From a virus (lineage: Duplodnaviria > Caudoviricetes), in IMG/VR virus record IMGVR_UViG_3300010376_000117, positions 1 to 26,481 of that record: a DNA stretch of 26,481 nt; one strand, given 5' to 3'. The notes below the pieces were generated by a model, which had not been told where the DNA came from, did no database searches, and worked only from the letters and a program-made list of their open reading frames with translations. Position 1 is the stretch's first letter, and each line of letters opens with the position of its first letter. This document shows positions 7,454 through 26,481 of this stretch, piece by piece. The position numbers were made by a program, and so were the translations under genes.

Positions 7454-8461
7454 TCAAATGTTCAGGAAGCTCAAGTTGTCGAACTTCCCATGTGCCTTGC
7501 ACTTGACGTCCACCATTTCGAGAAGCGTCAGCAGTGCGCCGATATAGCCAAACTGGCCGTTGGCCAGCGTGCTCTCGAACCCGGTGAAATAGAAGCTGGC
7601 GCGCTCGTGGACGTAAAGCGACAGATAGTCGGTATTGAGAAGATAGAGCGTTCCCTCCGGGCAGTAGGTGTCCGGGTAGAATGGCACGCCCGCGATATCT
7701 AGCGCCGAGAACAGCGCCTCGACCTTGCCGTCGGAGAAGCTGGACGATGGAGTTACGTTGTAGCGCTCGTTCGACGTGAAATCCTGCGCCAACTGGGTCC
7801 AGGTGCCGAAGCCCATCAGACCCATCTTTGGCTTCTCGCCGGTCACCTTGGTAACCTGCGAGATGTACTGCAGCATCAGGTTCCGGGTCGGGGTGGTGGC
7901 GCCGCCGTTATGAACGTAGGTGGACTTCCAGAACGTGTTGCTGGAGCGGTTGATGCCGCCGTAGGTCGCCGCAAACGTGCCGTCATCGACCGCCGCCGGC
8001 AGCCCGATCATCGACTGGGTGTTGGCAACGTTGTTGTAGAGATCGGTGGAGAAGCGATCGAGCGTAACGTTGGTCGCGTCGTTCATGCGCGCTTCGATCA
8101 GAGGAACTATCGAGTAGTCGAGTTGGACAAGGCCCTCCATTCCCAGGAAGGGAATGGCGGTAAGATAGCCCTTGAGGTTGAACTCGGCGTTCTGCAGCCC
8201 CGGAGTGACGCCAGGCTGATCAAACGAGCCGTCGTAGCCGACGTTCTCGATCGTCACCATGGGGTTGCCCTGCAATGGCACCGTGATCGGGGACAAGCCG
8301 CCAGAGGCCACCTGCGCATGGGACAGCAGCGCCGCCATCATCGGCGTTGACTTCCACAGCTGGATGAACACCTTCGGCAGGAAGGCGCGGCGGGTGACGG
8401 CGGCTAGCTCGGCGGCGATCGCACCTTGAGCCGGGATAATACCTTGTCCAAATTGAGGCAC
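7454..8461 (-). CDS. Major capsid protein (HK97 fold, inferred)
   Basis: 335 aa, downstream of a scaffold-like gene. Capsid-like motifs include QLWKSTPMMAALL, IGLPAAVDDG..TYGGINRS, IAGVPFYPDTYCPEGTLYLLNT and a terminal HGKFDNL. Confidence 0.85.
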   Translation of the reverse strand: MPQFGQGIIPAQGAIAAELAAVTRRAFLPKVFIQLWKSTPMMAALLSHAQVASGGLSPITVPLQGNPMVTIENVGYDGSFDQPGVTPGLQNAEFNLKGYLTAIPFLGMEGLVQLDYSIVPLIEARMNDATNVTLDRFSTDLYNNVANTQSMIGLPAAVDDGTFAATYGGINRSSNTFWKSTYVHNGGATTPTRNLMLQYISQVTKVTGEKPKMGLMGFGTWTQLAQDFTSNERYNVTPSSSFSDGKVEALFSALDIAGVPFYPDTYCPEGTLYLLNTDYLSLYVHERASFYFTGFESTLANGQFGYIGALLTLLEMVDVKCKAHGKFDNLSFLNI

Positions 8462-11506: not shown

Positions 11507-13225
11507 TCAGGCTGCCTTCCGCGCGTGGGCAGGCTTGGGTTGCTCTCCGCTCATCGCCTGCTGCTGCTTGAGAGCCGCTTCCGCCTTCACCCTCTCCCGC
11601 AGCGCGTGGATGATGGCGTCGGCATTGGGCGGATCGAGCATCCGCACCAGCATTTCGCGGTCGATGGCCTCGGCCTTGAACAATCCGGCCGCCTGCTCCT
11701 TGGCCTCATCCTGGAACAGCGGCGAGTGCGAGTGGCCAGCGACCGAAATCCGCAGGTTGGTTTCGGAAACGAGCGCCGGAACCAGCGTCTCGCCCGACTT
11801 GGTGGTGAACCGGTGATCCGAGTTCTTCTGCAGGAGCTTGATCGAGATGTCCGCCAGCTTGACCAGGGACGGCTCCAGCGCCACGGCGATCTTGCGGATA
11901 CGCCCGGAGCCGGTCAGCGCCAGCCGCTTGGCGTGCTTCTCTCCACGAACTCCCTGTTCCCCCTGTCCCATCACGGTCTCGGTAAGTCCGGACGCATCCA
12001 GGAAGATGTGACCGATCTCATTAAACTCGGTGAACAGGTTTTCCGGCATCTGCGGCGACAGCTGGTCGATCTTGGCGCCCGGAATCTGGTCGAGCACCCA
12101 GGCGCCGGGACCGCGCAGCGCGTTCATCTTCTCGTCCGCCAGCCCGGAGAAGCCGGAACCCACCAGCGGCGGGTCCACCTGCTTCTCCAGCATGTCGGAA
12201 ATCTGCTGCAGCCGCTCGTTGGTCCACACCTGCAGCTGAATCAGATTGTCGCAATGGGACTCGCCCCAGAAGAAATTATAGAGGCTGTATGGACGAACCT
12301 GGATGAACGGGTGTTCGCCGGGAAGGAAGATGTTCGACTTGCCCTCATAGCGGTGCCGGTTGGCCTCATCCGCCTCCGCCATGGCCGCGACCGTCTCCCG
12401 GCTGTCGGAGAGGCACCCGGTCACGCCGTCCATCATGGTAAAGAAGGCATAGTCCTCCGCGATGTCGTCCCACACCACGATCTCGTGGCAGCGCACCATC
12501 GGGTTGTCGGACTTGGACTCGTAGGTCGCGCGCGGCTCGTAATCGACCGAAGCCCGCCCGGTCATGGCGCCAGCGATGTTGGGGCCGCCGGTCGAGTTGA
12601 TCAGCAGGTTGGCCAGGATCGGCGGCATCTCGTCGGACTCGTTGCCCGGACGCGCCACCAGACTGTCAATCTGATCCTTCATTCCTGCTCGGAGCAGTCG
12701 AAGGACAGCATTATCCCAGTTGAGACTGTAAGAATGGACAAACGCTTCTTGCGAGTCGAGATCGGGTTCAGATTCGTCGTAGACAGAAAAATCCTGCGGA
12801 GCAAAGACGGTCCCAGTGAGGCAGTTGCGAGTGTCGTTCCACCCGATCTTGATGAACATTGAATCGAACACCAGAGACCAGAGGATGGCCTCGGAGAACT
12901 GATAAGCCAGTCCGGTGTCTTTGAAAAAGTCGTTCCATTCATCCTGCAGCCCCGTTGCCTGATCTACCGCGGAAGTATCGGCGTTGCGAGAAGCCGCCAC
13001 AGAAAATCGGCAATGATCCGGCGCATAGAGAAAGGACGATACCAGATCGAGATGTGATTTGAGCCTGTTATATTTGACCTCGACTCCGTAATCGGAAGTT
13101 CCAAATAGAAAGTACCGTTTCCGACGCAGATAGAGTGCGTCACGGTCTCCCCGTGACGCGAGACATGTGTCTTTGATCTGCTGAATCTTCTCATCCCGGT
13201 CAGCCGGGTCGCGCGGAATTATCAC
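11507..13225 (-). CDS. Portal protein
   Basis: About 572 aa from GTG 13225 (MIIPRDP). It lies between terminase and scaffold/capsid genes and shows portal-like segments YNRLKSHLD, HPFIQV..FFWGES, LEKQVDPP and ASGLTETVMGQGEQGVR. Confidence 0.85.
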   Translation of the reverse strand: MIIPRDPADRDEKIQQIKDTCLASRGDRDALYLRRKRYFLFGTSDYGVEVKYNRLKSHLDLVSSFLYAPDHCRFSVAASRNADTSAVDQATGLQDEWNDFFKDTGLAYQFSEAILWSLVFDSMFIKIGWNDTRNCLTGTVFAPQDFSVYDESEPDLDSQEAFVHSYSLNWDNAVLRLLRAGMKDQIDSLVARPGNESDEMPPILANLLINSTGGPNIAGAMTGRASVDYEPRATYESKSDNPMVRCHEIVVWDDIAEDYAFFTMMDGVTGCLSDSRETVAAMAEADEANRHRYEGKSNIFLPGEHPFIQVRPYSLYNFFWGESHCDNLIQLQVWTNERLQQISDMLEKQVDPPLVGSGFSGLADEKMNALRGPGAWVLDQIPGAKIDQLSPQMPENLFTEFNEIGHIFLDASGLTETVMGQGEQGVRGEKHAKRLALTGSGRIRKIAVALEPSLVKLADISIKLLQKNSDHRFTTKSGETLVPALVSETNLRISVAGHSHSPLFQDEAKEQAAGLFKAEAIDREMLVRMLDPPNADAIIHALRERVKAEAALKQQQAMSGEQPKPAHARKAA

Positions 13226-13526
13226 GTTGATACCCTGTTGCTGGCCGAACCGCACGTGGCTTGCGTACAATCTTGTAGCCGCTGTAATAGCCCCCGATGA
13301 TGCGGATGCCGGCGTCGGCGTCGGCAAACATATCGTTGATTTGATAGATATGGGCTCTGATGCACACCTGGGTGACGCCAAAGTGCTTTGCCAGCTTCGT
13401 GCTGGTCTGCATTGAGCCGTGCCTGATCTTGTCGTAGATTTCCGCCTTCTTCGGCGTCAGAAAGACGCCCTCACGCCGGAACTTCAAGGGTTGGTTGCAG
13501 TGCGGGCATCGCTCCTGATTCGACAT
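13200..13526 (-). CDS. Putative DNA-binding protein (CPHC knuckle + helix-turn-helix)
   Basis: From ATG 13526: CPHCNQP, then LTPKKAEIYDKI..STKLAKHFGVTQVCIRAHIYQIN (HTH-like) and a GYKIV wing. Confidence 0.65.
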   Translation of the reverse strand: MSNQERCPHCNQPLKFRREGVFLTPKKAEIYDKIRHGSMQTSTKLAKHFGVTQVCIRAHIYQINDMFADADAGIRIIGGYYSGYKIVRKPRAVRPATGYQRDNSARPG

Positions 13527-14342: not shown

Positions 14343-14677
14343 CCCAGTGCCTTGCATGTGGGGCAATAGCTGCGCCACGGTTCGATGCGCCACCCGATCT
14401 TGGCAAACTCCTCGATCACGTCGTTGGTGACGTCCTTTTCCTTGCGCCGCTTGGCTACCGCAATGGCCGCCGGGTCGCCCATGCAGATGGCGCCGAACGG
14501 GACATGCACCACATCGCTGTCGCAGCGGCATCGAAAGCAGCGTGTCCGCATCGGGACGATCTGCTGAATCCACCGATTGTCCTTGTAGTCGTTGATGTCG
14601 GCCAGCTCATCCAGCCGACGTCTGGACATATCGTAGGCGTTGTACACTTCCTCTTGGCTGATCTTCTGTTCTTTCAT
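14339..14677 (-). CDS. Hypothetical zinc-binding protein (112 aa)
   Basis: ATG 14677 overlaps the terminase stop. Contains CFRC and CPTC pairs. Confidence 0.7.
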   Translation of the reverse strand: MKEQKISQEEVYNAYDMSRRRLDELADINDYKDNRWIQQIVPMRTRCFRCRCDSDVVHVPFGAICMGDPAAIAVAKRRKEKDVTNDVIEEFAKIGWRIEPWRSYCPTCKALG

Positions 14678-16482
14678 GGCTTCGCCTCCGTAATGATGCC
14701 CTGCTGATGCAGGTAGTTGAGCGCGATCGCCTGCACCTGGGACGGCTTGCCGTGCAATGCCTCCTCCGCCAGGGCGGCAAAAGAAATCCCCATGCCGCGC
14801 ATCTTCGGCTGCAGCCAGCGGCGCCACGCCTCATGCGCCAGCGCCGCCGCAATCACCCGGTCGTCCTTCTTCTTGCCCTCGCCCTCGATGATCCCGCCAT
14901 CGATGATGATGTGCTTCATCTCCTCCAGCAGCGGCATCGAATTGAGGATGAAGCGGCGCAACTCGAATGAATCCTTAAGTCCGGCCATCATCGGCGGTTT
15001 GTTGGAGGGCGAGGTGCGCCACTGATAGGCCAGACCGCCGCCGGCAACGGCGTCCTCGCGCCGGTACAAAAAATGCTGCATGTACATGAGCACGTTGCGC
15101 AGGTCGGCATTGCTGCCAGGCTGGATGATCGAATTGTCGGTCTTCAGCCGGTTCATCTCGTTGAAGACGGCGCCGCCAGGACCGTTGATTTCAAGATTGA
15201 CCTGAACTCGTTTGTAGTATCCAGCCAAGTGACAGAGTACCCAGGCGCATTGATAAGTCGAGAAAGAGGAAGATACAAATTCGGCCACCTGCACCAGCCG
15301 GTCGCTGAAACAGCGGGCGACGTGGATGACGGTGCGGTCGGCGTTCTCGGATGATCCGTAGGCCGGGTCGCAGCCGATGACGTAGTGTCCGGCGGGGTCG
15401 GCCTCTTCCCAGACTTTGAGTTCTCCACGTCGATCCCTCGTTTGCAGGCACTGCGTCTCGTGCCACTTGTCCGACATCAGATATTTGAACGGCATGTAAG
15501 CCTGCTGGCGCGCGCGCCGCATGGCATCGGTCAGCGTCTCATTGGTGAAGAAGTTGGCGCCGGTGGCGACGAAGGCATCCTCCTCAACCCATGGGAAATT
15601 CTCGTCCATCTTTGCCTGGTCGTCGCCCTGGTCGCCGGCCATCTTCCAGCGGTACCAGGCAATCTGATTGTGGGTTACCTCAATTCCGTATCGTTCGAGC
15701 ACGAGTTTCTTGCGCTTGCGTTCGAGTACATCGAGCCGCGTGTCATGGCCTTCAGGCATGAATTGAAGGAAGCGAGGGTCATCGTCGGCAAAAGTATAAT
15801 GGTCGTGCCGCCACCATCCGACGAAGATGCAATGTATGGACGCGTCATTCTTGGCGGCTTCCCACTTCTCGGACCAGAAGTTGAATCCATTGGCGGTAGT
15901 CTCCTCGACATAGAGACGGTGCGGGTGATGGGTGGACATGGTGGCACCGAGCTCCAGCAGATCGTCGGGCGATCCCCAGAACGACACCTCGGTGGCGTGC
16001 ACGAAGTTGTTGGCTCCGGATCGTCCGAGACCGCCCTTGGCCTTGTCCTTGATGCCGGCAACCAGATATTGAATGATCGATCCGTTCTTGAGGATCAGCA
16101 TGTCGCGGTTCTCGGCCCGCTGCGGTATCTTGAACCCCTTCGGCAGATTGGCGAACAGAACGCCGATCACGTTGCGAAACAGCTGCTTCGACATCTCGGT
16201 GTGAGTGGCGAACGAACCGGAGATGCCCTTGTACTCCATCGCCCAGAACAGATCGAGCACCACGAAGAAGGTGGTGGACCCGAGCTGGCGCGCTTTGAGG
16301 ATCATGATCTTGGCAATGCCGGCCGCGCGCGCCTTGCAAATCTCGTCCAGGATGTAGGTCTGGGTGCCGAGCAGCTCCATCGGGACCAGACCAAAGTCCT
16401 TGGTCTGAATCCGCACGCGCTTGCAGAACGCCTCAAAGCGCTCGCGCGGAAACGGGGTCAGCTGGCCGATGGGGGCGGACAT
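14674..16482 (-). CDS. terL: Terminase large subunit
   Basis: Walker A ILKARQLGSTT, Walker B variant FVHATEV, coupling motif ETTANG, nuclease motifs VIGCDPAYG, LEING and DDRVIA. Confidence 0.95.
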   Translation of the reverse strand: MSAPIGQLTPFPRERFEAFCKRVRIQTKDFGLVPMELLGTQTYILDEICKARAAGIAKIMILKARQLGSTTFFVVLDLFWAMEYKGISGSFATHTEMSKQLFRNVIGVLFANLPKGFKIPQRAENRDMLILKNGSIIQYLVAGIKDKAKGGLGRSGANNFVHATEVSFWGSPDDLLELGATMSTHHPHRLYVEETTANGFNFWSEKWEAAKNDASIHCIFVGWWRHDHYTFADDDPRFLQFMPEGHDTRLDVLERKRKKLVLERYGIEVTHNQIAWYRWKMAGDQGDDQAKMDENFPWVEEDAFVATGANFFTNETLTDAMRRARQQAYMPFKYLMSDKWHETQCLQTRDRRGELKVWEEADPAGHYVIGCDPAYGSSENADRTVIHVARCFSDRLVQVAEFVSSSFSTYQCAWVLCHLAGYYKRVQVNLEINGPGGAVFNEMNRLKTDNSIIQPGSNADLRNVLMYMQHFLYRREDAVAGGGLAYQWRTSPSNKPPMMAGLKDSFELRRFILNSMPLLEEMKHIIIDGGIIEGEGKKKDDRVIAAALAHEAWRRWLQPKMRGMGISFAALAEEALHGKPSQVQAIALNYLHQQGIITEAKP

Positions 16483-18236: not shown

Positions 18237-18401
18237 TCACTCAAGATATTGCAGCGTCATGAAGGCGGAAAAAATAATGCAGAAGACCGGCGCCAGCACC
18301 ACCGCCGCCAGCAGGTGGTGAAACCAGACGAAGGTCACCATCGCCACCAGCGTGACGAACATCAGCCAGACCATGACCACCAGCACGATCTCGCGGATCA
18401 T
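18237..18401 (-). CDS. 54-aa two-TM membrane protein, holin candidate
   Basis: ATG 18401 with ATGA overlap. Almost entirely hydrophobic and immediately upstream of the endolysin. Confidence 0.55.
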   Translation of the reverse strand: MIREIVLVVMVWLMFVTLVAMVTFVWFHHLLAAVVLAPVFCIIFSAFMTLQYLE

Positions 18402-18410
18402 CTGTAGCCC
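18394..18410. repeat. 17-bp direct repeat, copy 1 (cggatcatctgtagccc)
   Basis: Identical to 19540-19556. Confidence 0.95.
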
Positions 18411-18922
18411 GTGATGATTGCGGTCGATCGCCAGCCTGCAAAGACGATGGCGGCATAGACCTTGCCGAGTATCTGTCCGGAAATCAGATCGATCGAGCCG
18501 AAAGCCAGCCACAGGAAGATCGCGGAATCGACGACCGCGCCGGCAAGACAGCTGGCCAGGACGGCGGCGACAAGACGTTTGCGCCAGAGCGGCGTGAAGA
18601 CGGCGAAGTCGGTGACCTCGGAGAACAGGAAAGCGGTGCCCGAGGCGGTGGCAAGCGCAGCCGGCGCGATCATGAACGACAGCACGGTGCCGATGCCAAT
18701 GCAGACGATCGAGGCCTGGGCGCCCCAGCTGCGTTGGACGAGATCGCGCAGGACGAGTGCGATGCCGATCATCAGGACGCCGCTCGGCGCCATGACGCCC
18801 GGCGCGACCGGGATGAGACAAGGCCCGTCAGGAATGCATACGGTGCCGACGTGACCGATCAGATAGTTGGCCGCCGGAATGGTGCCGGCATAGCCGGCAA
18901 TGAGCAGTAGTTTACTAGACAT
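18398..18922 (-). CDS. VUT-family (YhhQ-like) putative queuosine-precursor transporter
   Basis: Multi-TM protein with AANYL, GVLMIGIALVLRDLVQ, ASGTAFLFSEVTDFAVF, VDSAIFLWLAFG and GQILGK, the characteristic Vut_1 pattern. Confidence 0.85.
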   Translation of the reverse strand: MSSKLLLIAGYAGTIPAANYLIGHVGTVCIPDGPCLIPVAPGVMAPSGVLMIGIALVLRDLVQRSWGAQASIVCIGIGTVLSFMIAPAALATASGTAFLFSEVTDFAVFTPLWRKRLVAAVLASCLAGAVVDSAIFLWLAFGSIDLISGQILGKVYAAIVFAGWRSTAIITGYR

Positions 18923-19547
18923 CGATCAGCATATCCGGTTGACGCAAAGCGTTATCGAGCTTCTGCAGGGTGACGGCGAAACGTGAGACCGAGGAGCCGT
19001 CGAAGCTATCGACCGCCGCGGCAGCGCACAGCGCAATGCGGCGTGCGCTGTTGACCCGACCAACATGGCAGTAGGCGTCGCGCGCGCGTGCTAGTTGACC
19101 CCAGTTCCGCATTGTTTGCTCCTTCCATTGGCTGGTGCCGCCGACGAAGATGCCAAGACGCGGCCCGATAAGAGAGGCGACTTCGTCGGAAGTCATGCCG
19201 TCCTGAACCGCCAGCAGTTGTGGACAAACAAACGGAAGACGCTGTCTCCAGGCGAGAGAAAACTCCAGCGAACCGTGTCCGCCCGCGACGATGTCGGGCA
19301 GCACGACAAAGTCGGAATTGGCGGCTAACAACTCATAGACCTTTAGAAAAGCCGCCTCGTCGAACTGCTGCCCTTGCGTGAACGATGTCCACGCGCCGTT
19401 GTCGATGCAGTAGCGATCAAAACCCTCGGTGCGGTGTACGCCCCTGGCAGATACCATCAAGCCCCAGCCGGCGGCTCTAAGAGCCGACAGATTTCGTCTG
19501 GTGCCGGTGCGCGAGGCATAGGCAAACATCAGGTTTTTTCGGATCAT
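18915..19547 (-). CDS. TGT-fold / DpdA-like putative 7-deazaguanine DNA transglycosylase
   Basis: TGT-barrel-like motifs in the expected order: IDNGAWT, VLPDIVAG, AVQDG, IFVGG, HVGRVN and DSFDGS. Coupled to a VUT transporter. Confidence 0.7.
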   Translation of the reverse strand: MIRKNLMFAYASRTGTRRNLSALRAAGWGLMVSARGVHRTEGFDRYCIDNGAWTSFTQGQQFDEAAFLKVYELLAANSDFVVLPDIVAGGHGSLEFSLAWRQRLPFVCPQLLAVQDGMTSDEVASLIGPRLGIFVGGTSQWKEQTMRNWGQLARARDAYCHVGRVNSARRIALCAAAAVDSFDGSSVSRFAVTLQKLDNALRQPDMLIDV

Positions 19548-19556
19548 CTGTAGCCC
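19540..19556. repeat. 17-bp direct repeat, copy 2
   Basis: Identical to 18394-18410. Confidence 0.95.
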
Positions 19557-20278
19557 AGCGCCGATAGCAGCGTCAGGTCCACTGCGCTGATCGGGTTGAT
19601 CTGACCGCCCGCAACAAAACCGTTGAAGGCGTCGGGGGTGTTGCCGAACCAGTCGCCGGCATCGAAGTTTGGGTTGGTGTCGAAAGTGTTGCCGATCGTG
19701 TTGCCGACGTCGGTCGAGAAGTAGCCGCCAATCGAGTTCGCCATCACGTTCGGTGCCGAATAGTGGAACAGGTCAAGCACCGTGGCAAAGCCGGAATTGT
19801 GGATCGAGCGGCCCATCACCTCGGTGATCTCGTGCGCGACCAGCCCGTAGAAATCGATCACGCCGGGAGCCGGCACCGTCCCGATCTGGGTGGAGACGTT
19901 GCCCTGAAAGCCTACATGCCCGTCCGATCCAATCTTCGGCGGCATCAGGCCAAGCGCCTTGGCCTGGGCCGGGACGATCCACATGGCGCGGTTGAGCGGA
20001 TCGGTCGGAGGCAGGGTGGTGGCCCCGACATTGCCGATCGCCAGCAGGGCTGTCCGGACCTGCGCATAGGTGAAGGTGGCGTGGCTGGTCAGCGACTCGC
20101 CTACAGCGCTCGATTGCATCGGCATGTTGCCGACAAACCCCCAGCCCACCGTGATGTGCAGCTGGATCGGCGCCAACGGATAGGTCTCGGCCAGGAAGCT
20201 GCACACTTCCTGCACCACCGCGGTGGCGCCGGTGGGAGCGTTGCTCCAGCTGGTGGTGAACCTGGGCTTGATGATCAT
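19544..20278 (-). CDS. NF038122-like zincin metalloprotease domain, stand-alone (244 aa)
   Basis: ATG 20278 with ATGA overlap. Motifs AQAKALGL, DGHVGF, DFYGLVAHEITEVMGR (HExxE), LDLFHYS, YFSTDVG, DAGDW and DAFN. Confidence 0.75.
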   Translation of the reverse strand: MIIKPRFTTSWSNAPTGATAVVQEVCSFLAETYPLAPIQLHITVGWGFVGNMPMQSSAVGESLTSHATFTYAQVRTALLAIGNVGATTLPPTDPLNRAMWIVPAQAKALGLMPPKIGSDGHVGFQGNVSTQIGTVPAPGVIDFYGLVAHEITEVMGRSIHNSGFATVLDLFHYSAPNVMANSIGGYFSTDVGNTIGNTFDTNPNFDAGDWFGNTPDAFNGFVAGGQINPISAVDLTLLSALGYR

Positions 20279-21297
20279 GGCGACTCCCATCGTTTCTGGA
20301 GGTATGGCCACTTGTCGAGCGAGTCCTGGTCGGCGAGGTTGGCCGCCTCGATCAGGCAAAGCTGTTCGAATACCTTGCTGGTAACCGGGACCTTCTGCGC
20401 GTGCCGCATGTCCAGAAACATGTGAGCATCGGCTGATACGGCGGTCTGCAGGCATTTTGGCCGGTCGATCGCGCCAAACAGCCACGCCAGCATCTCAGCC
20501 TCCTTGCCGAAGACGGTCGCAATCCGGCTGCGCTGGTCGGGAGTCGGCGCGAAAAGTTGTTGTTGGAAGGAATTTGTGCCGTAGATCGAGTGCAGCCCGC
20601 CGCCATAGCAGACCTCGAGCGGGCAGCCGCGATCCTTGAGCAGCTGAAACACCCGCACCAGATGATCGTGCAGCGAGCCCTTCTGATGCTTGATATGCCG
20701 TGCTCCAGCTCTCAACAGGAATTGCGACAGCTGCTCGAACTCGTCGGTGCGGCGCGCGCGCGCCTTGAACACCAGCACCGTGCGCATCACGTTGCACTTG
20801 CGCGACACGGCGCGGCCGGCATGCGCCAGCGTCGATGGGAATTTCACCAGCCGGTTCGGCCACGGCAGCACCGACTGGTGGAAATTGCCATGCGAAAACA
20901 CCGTCTCGCCGGCCCAGTCGCGATCCCACTTCGGCACCGCGTACAGCATGTAGGTCATCTCGTCGGAGCGCGACGAGTCGGTGTGGAAATAGCCGTCAGT
21001 GCCGTAGGTGTAGCCGTTGGCATAGACCCGGATCGGCACCGCCTGATGCGCGCGCACGACCTCCGAGGAGGAAATCGCCTGCCACACGATGTCGAACGCC
21101 GGAACGCCTTTGATGGGCAAAAGGTTGGAAAGATTGGCGCGGTCGTCGTGAAACGGCTTGTACGACCAGTGCCCGTGCGGGTCGGTCTCGCCATTCGACT
21201 TGGAGCCATAACTCCAGGGAAAGGTTTTCACCATCCGCAGGACGTCTTCCCACTTGTAAGCTGGCAGAAAGCCGTCGTGGATGTTCGCGTGCATCAC
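20275..21297 (-). CDS. 2OG-Fe(II) oxygenase fused to a DUF6817-like (HD-related) domain
   Basis: HxD (YFHTDS), WDRDWAGET, distal His (LAHAGR) and RTVLVFK. C-terminal domain HQKGSLHDHLVRV...GGLHSIYGT...FGKEAEMLAWLF. Confidence 0.85.
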   Translation of the reverse strand: MMHANIHDGFLPAYKWEDVLRMVKTFPWSYGSKSNGETDPHGHWSYKPFHDDRANLSNLLPIKGVPAFDIVWQAISSSEVVRAHQAVPIRVYANGYTYGTDGYFHTDSSRSDEMTYMLYAVPKWDRDWAGETVFSHGNFHQSVLPWPNRLVKFPSTLAHAGRAVSRKCNVMRTVLVFKARARRTDEFEQLSQFLLRAGARHIKHQKGSLHDHLVRVFQLLKDRGCPLEVCYGGGLHSIYGTNSFQQQLFAPTPDQRSRIATVFGKEAEMLAWLFGAIDRPKCLQTAVSADAHMFLDMRHAQKVPVTSKVFEQLCLIEAANLADQDSLDKWPYLQKRWESP

Positions 21298-23464: not shown

Positions 23465-23534
23465 TGATTTTTCCAGCCTGTGGTTGTGTGATGTAGACGA
23501 CACTGCAAACCCACGAATCAAAGGAACCACAACG

Positions 23535-23900
23535 TTGATAAAACTCACCCTCGCCCTCGTCTACCTCTCCCTCGCCGCAGACTTCCTCCCATGGTCCAAC
23601 GATCCCGCAACCAGAGACCCCCAAATCCGCCAGTGGCTCTCATCCCTCATGCAGCCAGATAACCCATACATGTCTTGCTGCGCCGAAGCAGATGCCTTCG
23701 AAGCCGACCTCTTCCAGGCCAAAAATGACCAGTACCTCGCAACCATCACAAACGGAAAAGGGCTCATCAAAGAAGGAACCACAATCCTGGTCCCTAACCA
23801 AAAAATAAAATGGAACTCCGGTAACCCTTCAGGCCACGGCGTCATCTTCATCGGACAAAACGCCCAAATCTACTGCTACGTCCCTCCAGCCGGCGTCTGA
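23535..23900 (+). CDS. Putative exported Cys-containing protein (121 aa)
   Basis: TTG start after AAGGA and a hydrophobic N-terminus. Motifs QWLSSLMQPD..SCCAEADA and GNPSGHGVIF..IYCYVPP. Confidence 0.7.
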   Translation: MIKLTLALVYLSLAADFLPWSNDPATRDPQIRQWLSSLMQPDNPYMSCCAEADAFEADLFQAKNDQYLATITNGKGLIKEGTTILVPNQKIKWNSGNPSGHGVIFIGQNAQIYCYVPPAGV

Positions 23901-24070
23901 AAACATCCCGCGCCAGACCGCAAGTCCGCCAAAGCTTCCTCTTCGCTCGCGCAAAAATCCAGGACGCGCTCCCCAGGTCGCGACCCCGCGTAAATCAACG
24001 ACCAGGATAACTCCGAACCAACGCGATCCTCCAGCTCCACGAAAGCCTCGATACCTAATACCTCACTCAT
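23876..24070 (-). CDS. Hypothetical protein, 64 aa
   Basis: GGGAGAG upstream; overlaps the upstream gene end. Confidence 0.45.
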   Translation of the reverse strand: MSEVLGIEAFVELEDRVGSELSWSLIYAGSRPGERVLDFCASEEEALADLRSGAGCFQTPAGGT

Positions 24071-24272
24071 GAATGCTCTCCCGCTTCAGCCGAACCTTGT
24101 GCCGGCACCGGTACTCCCCCCTCAACCTCAACCGGTCCCCCCTCCGGTCAAACTCAAACCCGCATACACACCGACAACGCCAAACCGCGTTCTTCCCCCC
24201 ACCAACACAAAATAACGCCACAACGTCCCCAAACCTCTCCCCACTGTGGTCCTTCAAATTGCTCCCGCGCAT
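24063..24272 (-). CDS. Small protein resembling the N-terminal Cys module of phage HNH/AP2 endonuclease-like proteins
   Basis: From ATG 24272: KDHSGERFGDVVAL...AVWRCRCVCG matches the DLTGxRFG..WxCxCDCG pattern. No nuclease domain follows. Confidence 0.6.
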   Translation of the reverse strand: MRGSNLKDHSGERFGDVVALFCVGGGKNAVWRCRCVCGFEFDRRGDRLRLRGEYRCRHKVRLKRESIHE

Positions 24273-24915
24273 CCTAAACCATCCCATAAAGTGGGGGATC
24301 ACCAAAATGCTTTTTTGGGGGGGAGGGGTGGGGCCGCCGCATCTGCCGCCTGGAACCCCAACGCCCCCGCGCACGCGCGCGCGCCACACGGCCGCCAGGG
24401 CTCCCACCAGCCTGTTCTCATACTACAGGTTGTACCAGGAGGCCGGGTTGCATTTCCGCTCTGTGGCCAGCAGCAAAAAAAAAGCGGAAAATCCAGCGAT
24501 TTCAACAGGACAGCGAGGACAACTTCATGATTGGGAAGCGTATGGGAAGGGAGCTCGAGCGGAGCGAGCGACCAAAAAATTTGAGCTCGAAATTTTCGCC
24601 AAAAAAAAACCGATTCGCTGAGTGATTCGACTCTCTCTGCCCTTCCAACCGACGGGCCGAATCTTCTTGTCTCCCTGCTGCGGGGTGGAGAAGTTGTCTT
24701 CCCCCTGTCTTGCTTCCCGTCTTGGTGGTCTGCTTTGTGGCAGCGGCTCTCTTTGCCGCTGCGGTGCATTCTCTCGTCTTGCCTATGTGTGGATGGCTGG
24801 TTCGTCTGAGCCGCGCGCGAGGGTAGGTATGCAAAATTGCCTTGTCAACTAGCTGGTGGTTGTTGTGGGGTTTAGGGTGCAACCTAGAGGTTGTATTTTG
24901 GGGCGGTTTTGGGAG

Positions 24916-24924
24916 TTATCCACA
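24916..24924 (+). promoter_or_regulatory. Consensus DnaA box TTATCCACA
   Basis: Perfect 9/9 match within the large intergenic region. Only a single perfect copy was seen. Confidence 0.45.
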
Positions 24925-24933
24925 GGAAAGTTT

Positions 24934-25058
24934 GATCACGAATTGTTACAGAGTGTTACAGGCTGTGAGGAGGTTGGCATGCTTCATTGCATAGCTCTTT
25001 TTGCTGCACTGCGGTGCAGATCTACCGCGGCGCAGCGTAAATGTAACATTTTGTGATC
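24934..25058. repeat. 17-bp inverted repeat pair (15/17 match), candidate operator sites
   Basis: gatcacgaattgttaca (24934-24950) and tgtaacattttgtgatc (25042-25058). tgttacag also occurs at 24944 and 24954. Confidence 0.65.
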
Positions 25059-25081
25059 GGCTCAAATGATTTTTTTCAACT

Positions 25082-25119
25082 CTCCCCAATTGACTCCCTC
25101 TTAGTTGGGGAGCAATCCT
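25082..25119 (+). promoter_or_regulatory. Candidate rightward promoter overlapped by an inverted repeat
   Basis: TTGACT (25090-25095) with a weak -10 region (CAATCCT), bracketed by ctccccaa (25082-25089) and ttggggag (25105-25112). Confidence 0.45.
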
Positions 25120-25264
25120 CTGGTCAAGTTAACCGGGATGGAGATGAGACACGGATGGACGAGCGGTCGGGGAGTGAGGCACCAGCCCTCCCTGTCTTGG
25201 AGTTCCGGACAGCGAAGCGAGGACGCCTAGCACCGGAGCGAGGAGAGAGAGAAAAGCTCCCCAC

Positions 25265-25324
25265 CCTTTCGTATGGCGTAGAGGACGCCACTGACGAGTG
25301 CCCCGGACGGGCCGAAACGAGAGG
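25265..25324 (+). ncRNA. Hammerhead ribozyme, type III
   Basis: Stem III CCUUUCGU/ACGAGAGG, cleavage triplet GUA (cut after 25273), stem I UGGCGU-AGAGG-ACGCCA, core CUGACGA, stem II G(U)GCCC-CGGAC-GGGCC, then GAAA. Confidence 0.9.
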
Positions 25325-25332
25325 ACTCTCAC

Positions 25333-25575
25333 ATGACCGAGCGACCGACTGCAAAACACCTTGCCGTCTCTATGACGGCCGAAGCATGGAACGACTTGTT
25401 GTGTATTCTGTACATGTACATTCATCGGACGGACGGCGTAGTTTTGTCGGCCGATGCGGAGACGCTCGCGGAGTGCATTCGCGAGCAAGTTGGCACTCGC
25501 ATACGCGCCTTGTTTCAGGCTGACGCTATTGCAGCCGCGGAAGATCTTAGGAGCATTTATGACTTTCACCTTTGA
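25333..25575 (+). CDS. Hypothetical protein, 80 aa
   Basis: SD GAGAGGA 7 nt upstream of the ATG. Confidence 0.7.
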   Translation: MTERPTAKHLAVSMTAEAWNDLLCILYMYIHRTDGVVLSADAETLAECIREQVGTRIRALFQADAIAAAEDLRSIYDFHL

Positions 25576-25747
25576 GCGTCGAATGAACGACAACCGGGTG
25601 GTATCCAGCCGCCGGCGATCGACCTACGTGTTTGCGGCGGACTGTGGATGCCGTAGGACAATGGCCTTTTTCCCAATGGAGGTTCCTCCCTCCATTGAGG
25701 ATACCTGCAAGCATGAGGAACCGAGTAGTGAAACGCGCTCTAAGTGA
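25559..25747 (+). CDS. Hypothetical protein, 62 aa
   Basis: SD AGGAG (25549-25553) before ATG 25559. MTFTFERRMNDN...CGC...CKH. Confidence 0.6.
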   Translation: MTFTFERRMNDNRVVSSRRRSTYVFAADCGCRRTMAFFPMEVPPSIEDTCKHEEPSSETRSK

Positions 25748-25791
25748 GCGCGTCTGCATGGGTGGCCACCATGCACTGATGATCAGGCCAC
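25728..25791 (+). ncRNA. Hammerhead ribozyme, type II with pseudoknot
   Basis: GAAA (25730-25733), stem III CGCGCUC-UAAGU-GAGCGCG, GUC site (cut after 25754), stem I UGCAUGG-GUGGCCA-CCAUGCA and core CUGAUGA. Stem II is minimal. Loop GUGGCC pairs with the 3' tail GGCCAC (25786-25791). Confidence 0.8.
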
Positions 25792-25804
25792 AGGAGACTC
25801 TCAA

Positions 25805-26479
25805 ATGTCCGCAAATATCGATACTTCTACCGGAAAGCCGGCTTTCGCTTTTGTCGGCGCCCGTGAGGCTATTTGGCACCGCGTGGGCTCGCAGATGCGA
25901 GCCGGGCAGTCCATGGATGACTGGCAGTCCGCTACCGGGCTGATGTGGGAGGCGATCAAGGCGCCGGTCCACACGTGGATCGACGGCACCCTGGTGGAGG
26001 TGAACAACCTCCACACGATCTACCGGTCTGACACGCATGCCTTTCTTGGCCACGGGTCGGACCAGTACACGCTGGATGGTGTGCAGCCGCGTGACAGCCT
26101 TGATTTTTTCTCTAGCTACATTGGTCATGATGACCGCTTCCGCGTTGACACGGCTGGCGCCCTCAAGGGCGGTGCCGTGATTTTTGCGACGGCGGTCTAT
26201 GACGGCGAGGTTACGATCGGCGGCGATGCGCACACCTCGCATCTGCTCTTTTCTACGAGCTATGACCAGTCCTTGGCGACGACGGTGGCCATGACGGCCG
26301 TGCGGGTAGTGTGCGCCAATACACTGTCGGCGGCGGTAGCCGATAGCGGTCGTGGAAAATCACTCATCAAGGTGCGGCACAGCACGACGTTTGACGCGAA
26401 TCGCGTGGGCAAGCAGCTAGCGGAGCTCGCGCAATCGATCGAGCGCTACAAGGCTGTCGGGGACAAGATGGCCGCGACC
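25805..26479 (+). CDS. DUF932/DUF945 (TIGR03299-like) phage/plasmid protein, partial (runs off window end)
   Basis: Not in the ORF track because there is no stop in the window. SD AGGAG, then MSANID..WHRVG..GLMW..TAGALKGG..LLFSTSYD..VRVVCANTL..KVRHS. Confidence 0.85.
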   Translation, partial: MSANIDTSTGKPAFAFVGAREAIWHRVGSQMRAGQSMDDWQSATGLMWEAIKAPVHTWIDGTLVEVNNLHTIYRSDTHAFLGHGSDQYTLDGVQPRDSLDFFSSYIGHDDRFRVDTAGALKGGAVIFATAVYDGEVTIGGDAHTSHLLFSTSYDQSLATTVAMTAVRVVCANTLSAAVADSGRGKSLIKVRHSTTFDANRVGKQLAELAQSIERYKAVGDKMAAT

Positions 26480-26481
26480 TA

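Follow-up and report, generated by a model that had tools for sequence, protein, structure and literature searches.

Two hammerhead ribozyme motifs, HH1 (type III) and HH2 (type II), lie on the plus strand at gene starts in a tailed phage and, going by their sequence, likely cut the transcript of its rightward operon into linear pieces without host RNases (Table 1). Judged by motif, HH1 and HH2 are a real, well-formed hammerhead pair. The first-pass annotation of this DNA had given the coordinates, types, strand and cut sites of both motifs, together with a 481-nt spacing between the cuts, and all of these were reproduced. It had also read the locus as a polycistronic transcript that processes itself, which remains the best reading but is not new, having been published for clustered phage hammerheads (Perreault 2011, PMC3088659). 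Layouts of this kind have been described in phages since 2011 and occur often.

Table 1. Features of the hammerhead locus and of the surrounding phage DNA; cut sites and the cleavage product are predicted.
Feature	Position	Strand	Details
Terminase large subunit	14674-16482	minus	
Major head protein	7454-8461	minus	
Head-tail adaptor	11507-13381	minus	
HH1, type III hammerhead	25265-25324	+	Rfam RF00008 below gathering, MFE fold, descriptor
HH1 stem III	25265-72/25317-24	+	8 bp
HH1 cleavage site GUA	cut after A25273	+	
HH1 stem I	25274-79/25285-90	+	6 bp
HH1 core CUGACGA	25291-97	+	
HH1 stem II	25298-25313	+	1+4 bp, bulged U25299
HH1 GAAA	25314-17	+	
SD of ORF1 (GAGG)	25321-25324	+	also the outer 3' strand of stem III in HH1; ATG 8 nt downstream
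ORF1	25333-25575	+	80-aa orphan; starts 59 nt after cut 1
ORF2	25559-25747	+	62-aa orphan, gene-called P0123; 17-nt overlap with ORF1
HH2, type II hammerhead	25728-25791	+	Rfam RF02276, descriptor, pseudoknot
HH2 GAAA	25730-33	+	
HH2 stem III	25733-40/25746-53	+	8 bp
HH2 cleavage site GUC	cut after C25754	+	
HH2 stem I	25755-61/25769-75	+	7 bp
HH2 core CUGAUGA	25776-82	+	
HH2 stem II			U10.1-U11.1 mismatch and one G-C pair
HH2 pseudoknot	loop I 25762-67 with 3' tail 25786-91	+	6 Watson-Crick bp
Two-gene cleavage product	25274-25754	+	481 nt, inferred from the two predicted cut sites
SD of DUF932 gene (AGGAG)	25792-25796	+	directly after HH2 pseudoknot strand, outside ribozyme helices
DUF932/TIGR03299-type phage protein, P0001	25805-26481	+	cut by window end; starts 50 nt after cut 2

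The window, that is, the whole stretch of DNA analysed here, is a linear partial contig of 26,481 nt with a CheckV completeness of 59%, and a soil metagenome DNA run was the only run containing its sequence. Genes for the terminase large subunit, the major head protein and a head-tail adaptor identify a tailed phage. The nearest terminase relative was 42% identical and the DUF932 relatives at most 45%; no relatives giving covariation at the locus were found, phage records yielding only chance matches of 29-32 nt. A Logan contig of one run, possibly the source sample itself, showed no differences within HH1 or HH2. The hammerheads lie where a rightward operon begins; this operon and the structural one point away from each other across ~1.4 kb without a convincing gene. 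Judging from its position as the first genes of the diverging operon, the rightward operon is plausibly an early one. A search with the sigma-70 consensus returned 0 promoter sites. The long gene-poor gap between the operons holds TTATCCACA at 24916-24924 (+), present in a single copy in the window, which matches the DnaA-box consensus. Two strong hairpins were also found in the leader upstream of HH1 (25003-25128, +; fold z -4.1, with 0 of 200 shuffles equally stable); they had no Rfam match and could be a promoter-linked or 5'-end element. In the late operon, an accessory block (18398-21297, minus) encodes a Vut_1-like transporter, a 2OG-Fe(II) oxygenase/DUF6817 fusion and members of unknown PHROG families, and may be related to base modification.

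The Rfam hammerhead scan suggested in the first-pass annotation succeeded at the curated threshold for one motif and fell short of it for the other. Hammerhead_II (RF02276) matched HH2 at 25726-25792 with 43 bits (gathering score, 37), the sole Rfam match in the window to reach gathering level. Hammerhead_3 (RF00008) matched HH1 at 25266-25323 with 29.6 bits (E 0.0014) and did not reach the gathering score of 48.5; HH1 is accordingly filed as a type III hammerhead by its core and topology, not as a curated member of RF00008. Beyond both hammerheads, Rfam returned for 23500-26481 only a gappy, weak Xoo8 match (21.7 vs 90 bits), which was treated as chance. With a strict structure descriptor only HH2 was recovered, the bulge in stem II keeping HH1 out; applied to 100 dinucleotide shuffles of the window, the descriptor gave one hit in 4 of them, two hits in 0 and a strong hit in 0. 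A relaxed descriptor, loosened after HH1 had been seen, returned exactly HH1 and HH2 in the window, both on the plus strand. It had no match in 1.05 Mb of loci used as reversed and complemented controls.

The core and the NUH site of HH1 are intact, and stems I and II are closed with stem III open, the topology of type III. In stem II of HH1 a bulge directly follows the 10.1-11.1 pair, a feature seen once in 59 type III comparisons. Loops I and II are joined by no more than two Watson-Crick pairs, the commonest value among the 59 comparisons when only canonical pairs are counted. The native fold cost 0.8-2.1 kcal/mol across 5 contexts, and in the widest folding context stem III was paired only ~13% of the time. 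Cleavage by HH1 may be slow, because the motif lies below the Rfam cut-off, its stem II is bulged and its loop-loop pairing amounts to at most 2 bp. Loop I (25280-25286) repeats a 7-nt word of 25320-25326 (+) that contains the Shine-Dalgarno sequence (SD), and the HH1-derived leader thus presents another SD-like word in a loop.

HH2 has stems I and III closed and stem II open, with the CUGANGA core, GAAA and NUH site all in place. Its 10.1-11.1 position is a U-U mismatch, which recurs in L317 and in the phage contig pair L318/L330 (3 of 30 loci); U10.1-U11.1 and a 1-bp stem II are both natural hammerhead variants (Perreault 2011, PMC3088659). The 6-bp pseudoknot is among the longest, 6 bp or more being seen in 3 of 150 type II comparisons. 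L318/L330 share the same subtype of U-U mismatch, 1-bp stem II and 6-bp pseudoknot, and their pseudoknot strands differ from those of HH2 and are still complementary. The active shape of HH2 costs 6.3-8.9 kcal/mol before the pseudoknot is counted, and the pseudoknot helix contributes -10.2; in one folding context, computed without the pseudoknot, stem I was paired only ~11%.

That the ribozymes bracket two small ORFs, each motif standing at a ribosome-binding site, was borne out as well: both ORFs are gene-called, the start of ORF2 was refined to 25559, GAGG lies inside stem III of HH1 and AGGAG follows directly on HH2. ORF1 is present in the protein collection; a homologue search returned ORF1 alone, and Pfam and PHROG gave no match. 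By codon use it is the best-scoring frame, but a weak one. The SD of ORF2 (AGGAG) is placed within the last codons of ORF1, and its stop (TGA, 25745-47) falls inside HH2, 7 nt before cut 2. Codon use gives ORF2 no support, the score over its last 54 codons being slightly negative. Starts of ORF2 at 25583 (ATG) or 25454 were replaced by 25559 on the strength of the gene call and the SD, and the other 3 phmmer matches of ORF2 (P0124-P0126) were rejected as repeats in unrelated proteins. Two long overlapping frames across the ribozymes (25155-25523 and 25632-25943) were rejected on codon score, the former being also missing from the protein collection. The DUF932 protein (378 aa in full) matched Pfam PF06067 (E 1.9e-25) and phrog_1221. 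Neither predicted cut falls within a called gene. The two starts at 25324-25335 and 25796-25807 (+) have in common an 8-nt word and one variable base directly before ATG; the word occurs nowhere else in the window and hints at a duplicated start module.

To assess how common this layout is, we searched stored viral contigs with one strict type II pattern. About 940 stretches matched, and 122 of the 129 sampled loci passed the structure descriptor, so that as a discovery the locus is ordinary. The sample held 161 distinct hammerheads, although these and the following counts overstate the number of independent cases, because the comparison loci, which partly overlap on one contig, were not dereplicated by contig. 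An SD-led start lay within 40 nt downstream of 117 of the 161 hammerheads (random positions, 17.5%), upstream of 6 and on the other strand in 11; the cut fell inside an SD-led ORF in 18 of 125 hammerheads, as against 70% of random positions. Among 80 loci with 2-kb flanks, 33 carried at least two hammerheads, on the same strand in all 33. Spacings in the comparison loci ranged from 68 to 1409 nt, and the 481 nt seen here are therefore ordinary. In a second comparison set, 92 of 121 loci had a hammerhead and 30 of 80 at least two. Mixed types occurred in 6 of 80 loci of the first set and 12 of 80 of the second, and the III-then-II order of HH1 and HH2 in 3 of 106 consecutive pairs.

A conserved link between hammerheads and DUF932 was considered and rejected. 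Among 163 DUF932 loci, the descriptor recovered a hammerhead at only 4, each time in sense orientation, and the ribozyme is thus not tied to the gene. The motif stands directly before DUF932 in L031 and directly after it in L016, and two of the four loci (L037 and L113) are near-identical. Rfam, run on 3 and on 20 of the DUF932 loci, returned no hammerhead, including at L016, where the descriptor had found one.

The reading of HH1 and HH2 as processing elements is supported because the Rfam and descriptor matches exceed chance, the cores are intact, the cuts lie outside genes and SDs are adjacent. Against it stand the negative promoter search, the unusual bulge of HH1 and its want of a clear tertiary contact, and the competing folds seen in some contexts. 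Cleavage at both sites would yield three pieces: a leader that is discarded, the 481-nt message of ORF1 and ORF2, and a message led by DUF932. Hammerhead cleavage leaves 5'-OH and 2',3'-cyclic phosphate ends, and constitutive processing would leave linear, hairpin-capped mRNAs with 5'-OH ends. Because the motifs are of types II and III, each downstream piece would retain most of its ribozyme: a fixed leader, 59 nt for ORF1 and 50 nt for DUF932, with a hairpin at its beginning. In folding, the 5' hairpin of the 481-nt piece is stem I of HH1 and its 3' hairpin is stem III of HH2. Such a leader would make the translation of each gene independent of upstream sequence, and the hairpin at the 5' end would likely slow 5'-end-dependent decay. 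A benefit in stability and insulation may be expected by analogy with RiboJ-type insulators and from RNase E/RppH chemistry. With RiboJ, transcript levels roughly doubled and protein rose two- to tenfold (PMC6206723). The best reading of HH1 and HH2 is that each is a gene-start module of its own and that the two do not form a matched pair.

Phage T7 processes its early polycistronic transcript by RNase III cuts between genes. That processing needs a host enzyme and leaves 5'-phosphate and 3'-OH ends; the intergenic placement of the cuts is alike in the two systems, whereas the host enzyme and the end chemistry are unlike hammerhead processing. The closest known arrangement is that of the clustered hammerheads flanking prophage genes in Agrobacterium tumefaciens, Clostridium scindens and Azorhizobium caulinodans, for which transcript processing was put forward as a hypothesis; three clusters cleaved in vitro and one in E. 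coli, and 14 of 18 consensus hammerheads were active (Perreault 2011, PMC3088659). HH1 and HH2 have the defining arrangement of such clusters, both lying on the plus strand and flanking ORF1-ORF2 in a phage contig. Common to the present locus and the published clusters are two or more sense-strand hammerheads around one gene or a short gene block in a phage, the pseudoknotted type II form with U10.1-U11.1 and 1-bp stem II variants, and the proposed role in processing, the idea of a circle having been raised there too. The present locus differs in that its genes are other ones, and orphans, the pair is III-then-II, an SD lies inside stem III and a stop 7 nt before a cut; it is known from sequence. 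Similarly, HHphage of the haloviruses HF1/HF2 directly precedes the first ORF of a polycistronic early transcript, with a mapped 5' end within 3 nt of the cut site (PMC3088659, Discussion), but it is a single, core-variant ribozyme of an archaeal virus, whereas the locus described here has two canonical cores. RiboJ-type insulators likewise self-cleave just upstream of the RBS and leave a fixed, hairpin-bearing 5' end; being engineered from the sTRSV ribozyme with an added hairpin, they offer an analogy of working, not of family (PMC6206723).

Cleavage might instead be coupled to translation, HH1 serving as an ON switch or timer and ribosomes finishing ORF2 melting the 5' half of HH2 and so delaying cut 2, a possibility that we regard as rather unlikely. 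On the HH1 side, the SD of ORF1 would be masked in stem III until the cut strand leaves. Folding gave an SD ~98% paired in the precursor, with an opening cost of 4.7-5.9 kcal/mol in the precursor vs 1.5-3.0 in the product; in each of the 12 contexts, cutting followed by strand release lowered the cost by 2.3-4.4 kcal/mol. However, the 8-bp helix (-12.2 kcal/mol) keeps the cut strand bound, and the gain therefore needs strand release; the SD next to HH2 showed no consistent gain from cutting. The last codons of ORF2 do cross the GAAA and stem III of HH2, and while its stop lies only 7 nt before cut 2, the upstream stop was at least 20 nt before the cut in all 95 comparison hammerheads having one. 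A targeted pattern applied to 23 loci recovered one further full case of an SD in stem III (L178), plus partial overlaps. Among type III motifs sampled irrespective of their SD, however, the overlap was none in 40 of 42, 2 nt in one and 4 nt in one, and the opening gain reached 2 kcal/mol in only 6 of 42; masking is thus unusual, not a general design. If cleavage is fast and constitutive, masking would have no regulatory effect and would be just compact packing. From the sequence, the masked SD and the placement of the ORF2 stop could reflect regulation or mere compaction.

Taken one step further, the two halves would form a ribozyme relay, in which HH1 cleavage and strand release unlock ORF1 and the coupled translation of ORF2 into HH2 times the release of the DUF932 message. 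We consider this quite improbable; if true, it would amount to protein-free timing of the first genes of the phage. In the mainly open-access literature searched, nothing was found on SD masking by phage hammerheads, and the terms 'ribosome binding' and 'translation' gave 0 hits in the portion of Perreault 2011 searched (PMC3088659). The further case noted above, L178:1978, is a type III hammerhead in which 4 nt of the SD (AGGAG) preceding a 278-aa gene form part of the 9-bp stem III, and its sequence makes it another candidate for cleavage-gated translation.

Alternatively, one or both motifs could be relics that cleave slowly or not at all, or selfish passengers, without effect on gene expression, and several features fit such a reading: the bulged stem II of HH1 with no clear tertiary contact, the U-U mismatch and 1-bp stem II of HH2, and competing folds of both in some contexts. 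Furthermore, Perreault 2011 saw no activity in 4 of the 18 consensus hammerheads (PMC3088659), and 159 of the 163 DUF932 loci lack a hammerhead. Against this, the core bases of HH1 and HH2 are all intact, the stems are long and nearly perfect, the pseudoknot of HH2 has a length matched or exceeded in few type II comparisons (3/150), and the same U-U/1-bp/6-bp subtype recurs in L318/L330. We consider relic or passenger status improbable.

The first-pass annotation had further proposed that the 25274-25754 piece, with ends that RtcB-type ligases join, could become a circular two-gene mRNA. Such a circle, whether closed by RtcB of the host or by a ribozyme, we judge very improbable. RtcB joins ends of the chemistry left by hammerhead cleavage, it is encoded in 10 of 14 control genomes, and the 481-nt piece contains both ORFs with their SDs and stops. 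However, the 5' end of the piece is held in a 6-bp hairpin and its 3' end is a 1-nt overhang on an 8-bp hairpin, the first 25 and last 25 nt pair with a probability of at most 0.01, and a hybrid hammerhead at the junction would cost 6.5 (type II) or 13.6 (type III) kcal/mol. The 481-nt piece thus has neither the ends brought together nor the like ribozyme re-formed at the junction that mark viroid-like circular RNAs. By a rough measure applied to the 106 pairs of neighbouring hammerheads, the longest helix joining the two ends reached 5 bp at most and was mostly 2-4 bp, with no frame bias. RtcB was found neither in the phage's own contig (0 of 1) nor in multi-hammerhead contigs (0 of 5), these contigs being 12-84% complete. 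Spliced or circular products were not detected, according to a data-not-shown statement in Perreault 2011 (PMC3088659). In these models, a circle would be allowed by chemistry and not favoured by anatomy, and the claim is unsupported.

As to function, a 2019 review called for more work on phage hammerheads (PMC6765202), and their roles are elusive in most cases according to a 2026 paper (PMC13725137). The locus offers a compact 600-nt test piece in which one ribozyme masks an SD and the other does not, so that stability, insulation and gating would be separable in one reporter. In L317 (IMGVR_UViG_3300032278_000067), one of the comparison loci, a 3-kb stretch contains five type II hammerheads, each followed by a GGAG start, and their 10.1-11.1 pairs (G-U, U-U, A-U and G-C) make up a natural series for that pair. 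L195 and L203 carry six and five type II hammerheads, respectively, within 4 kb, two of those in L195 standing back to back 68 nt apart.
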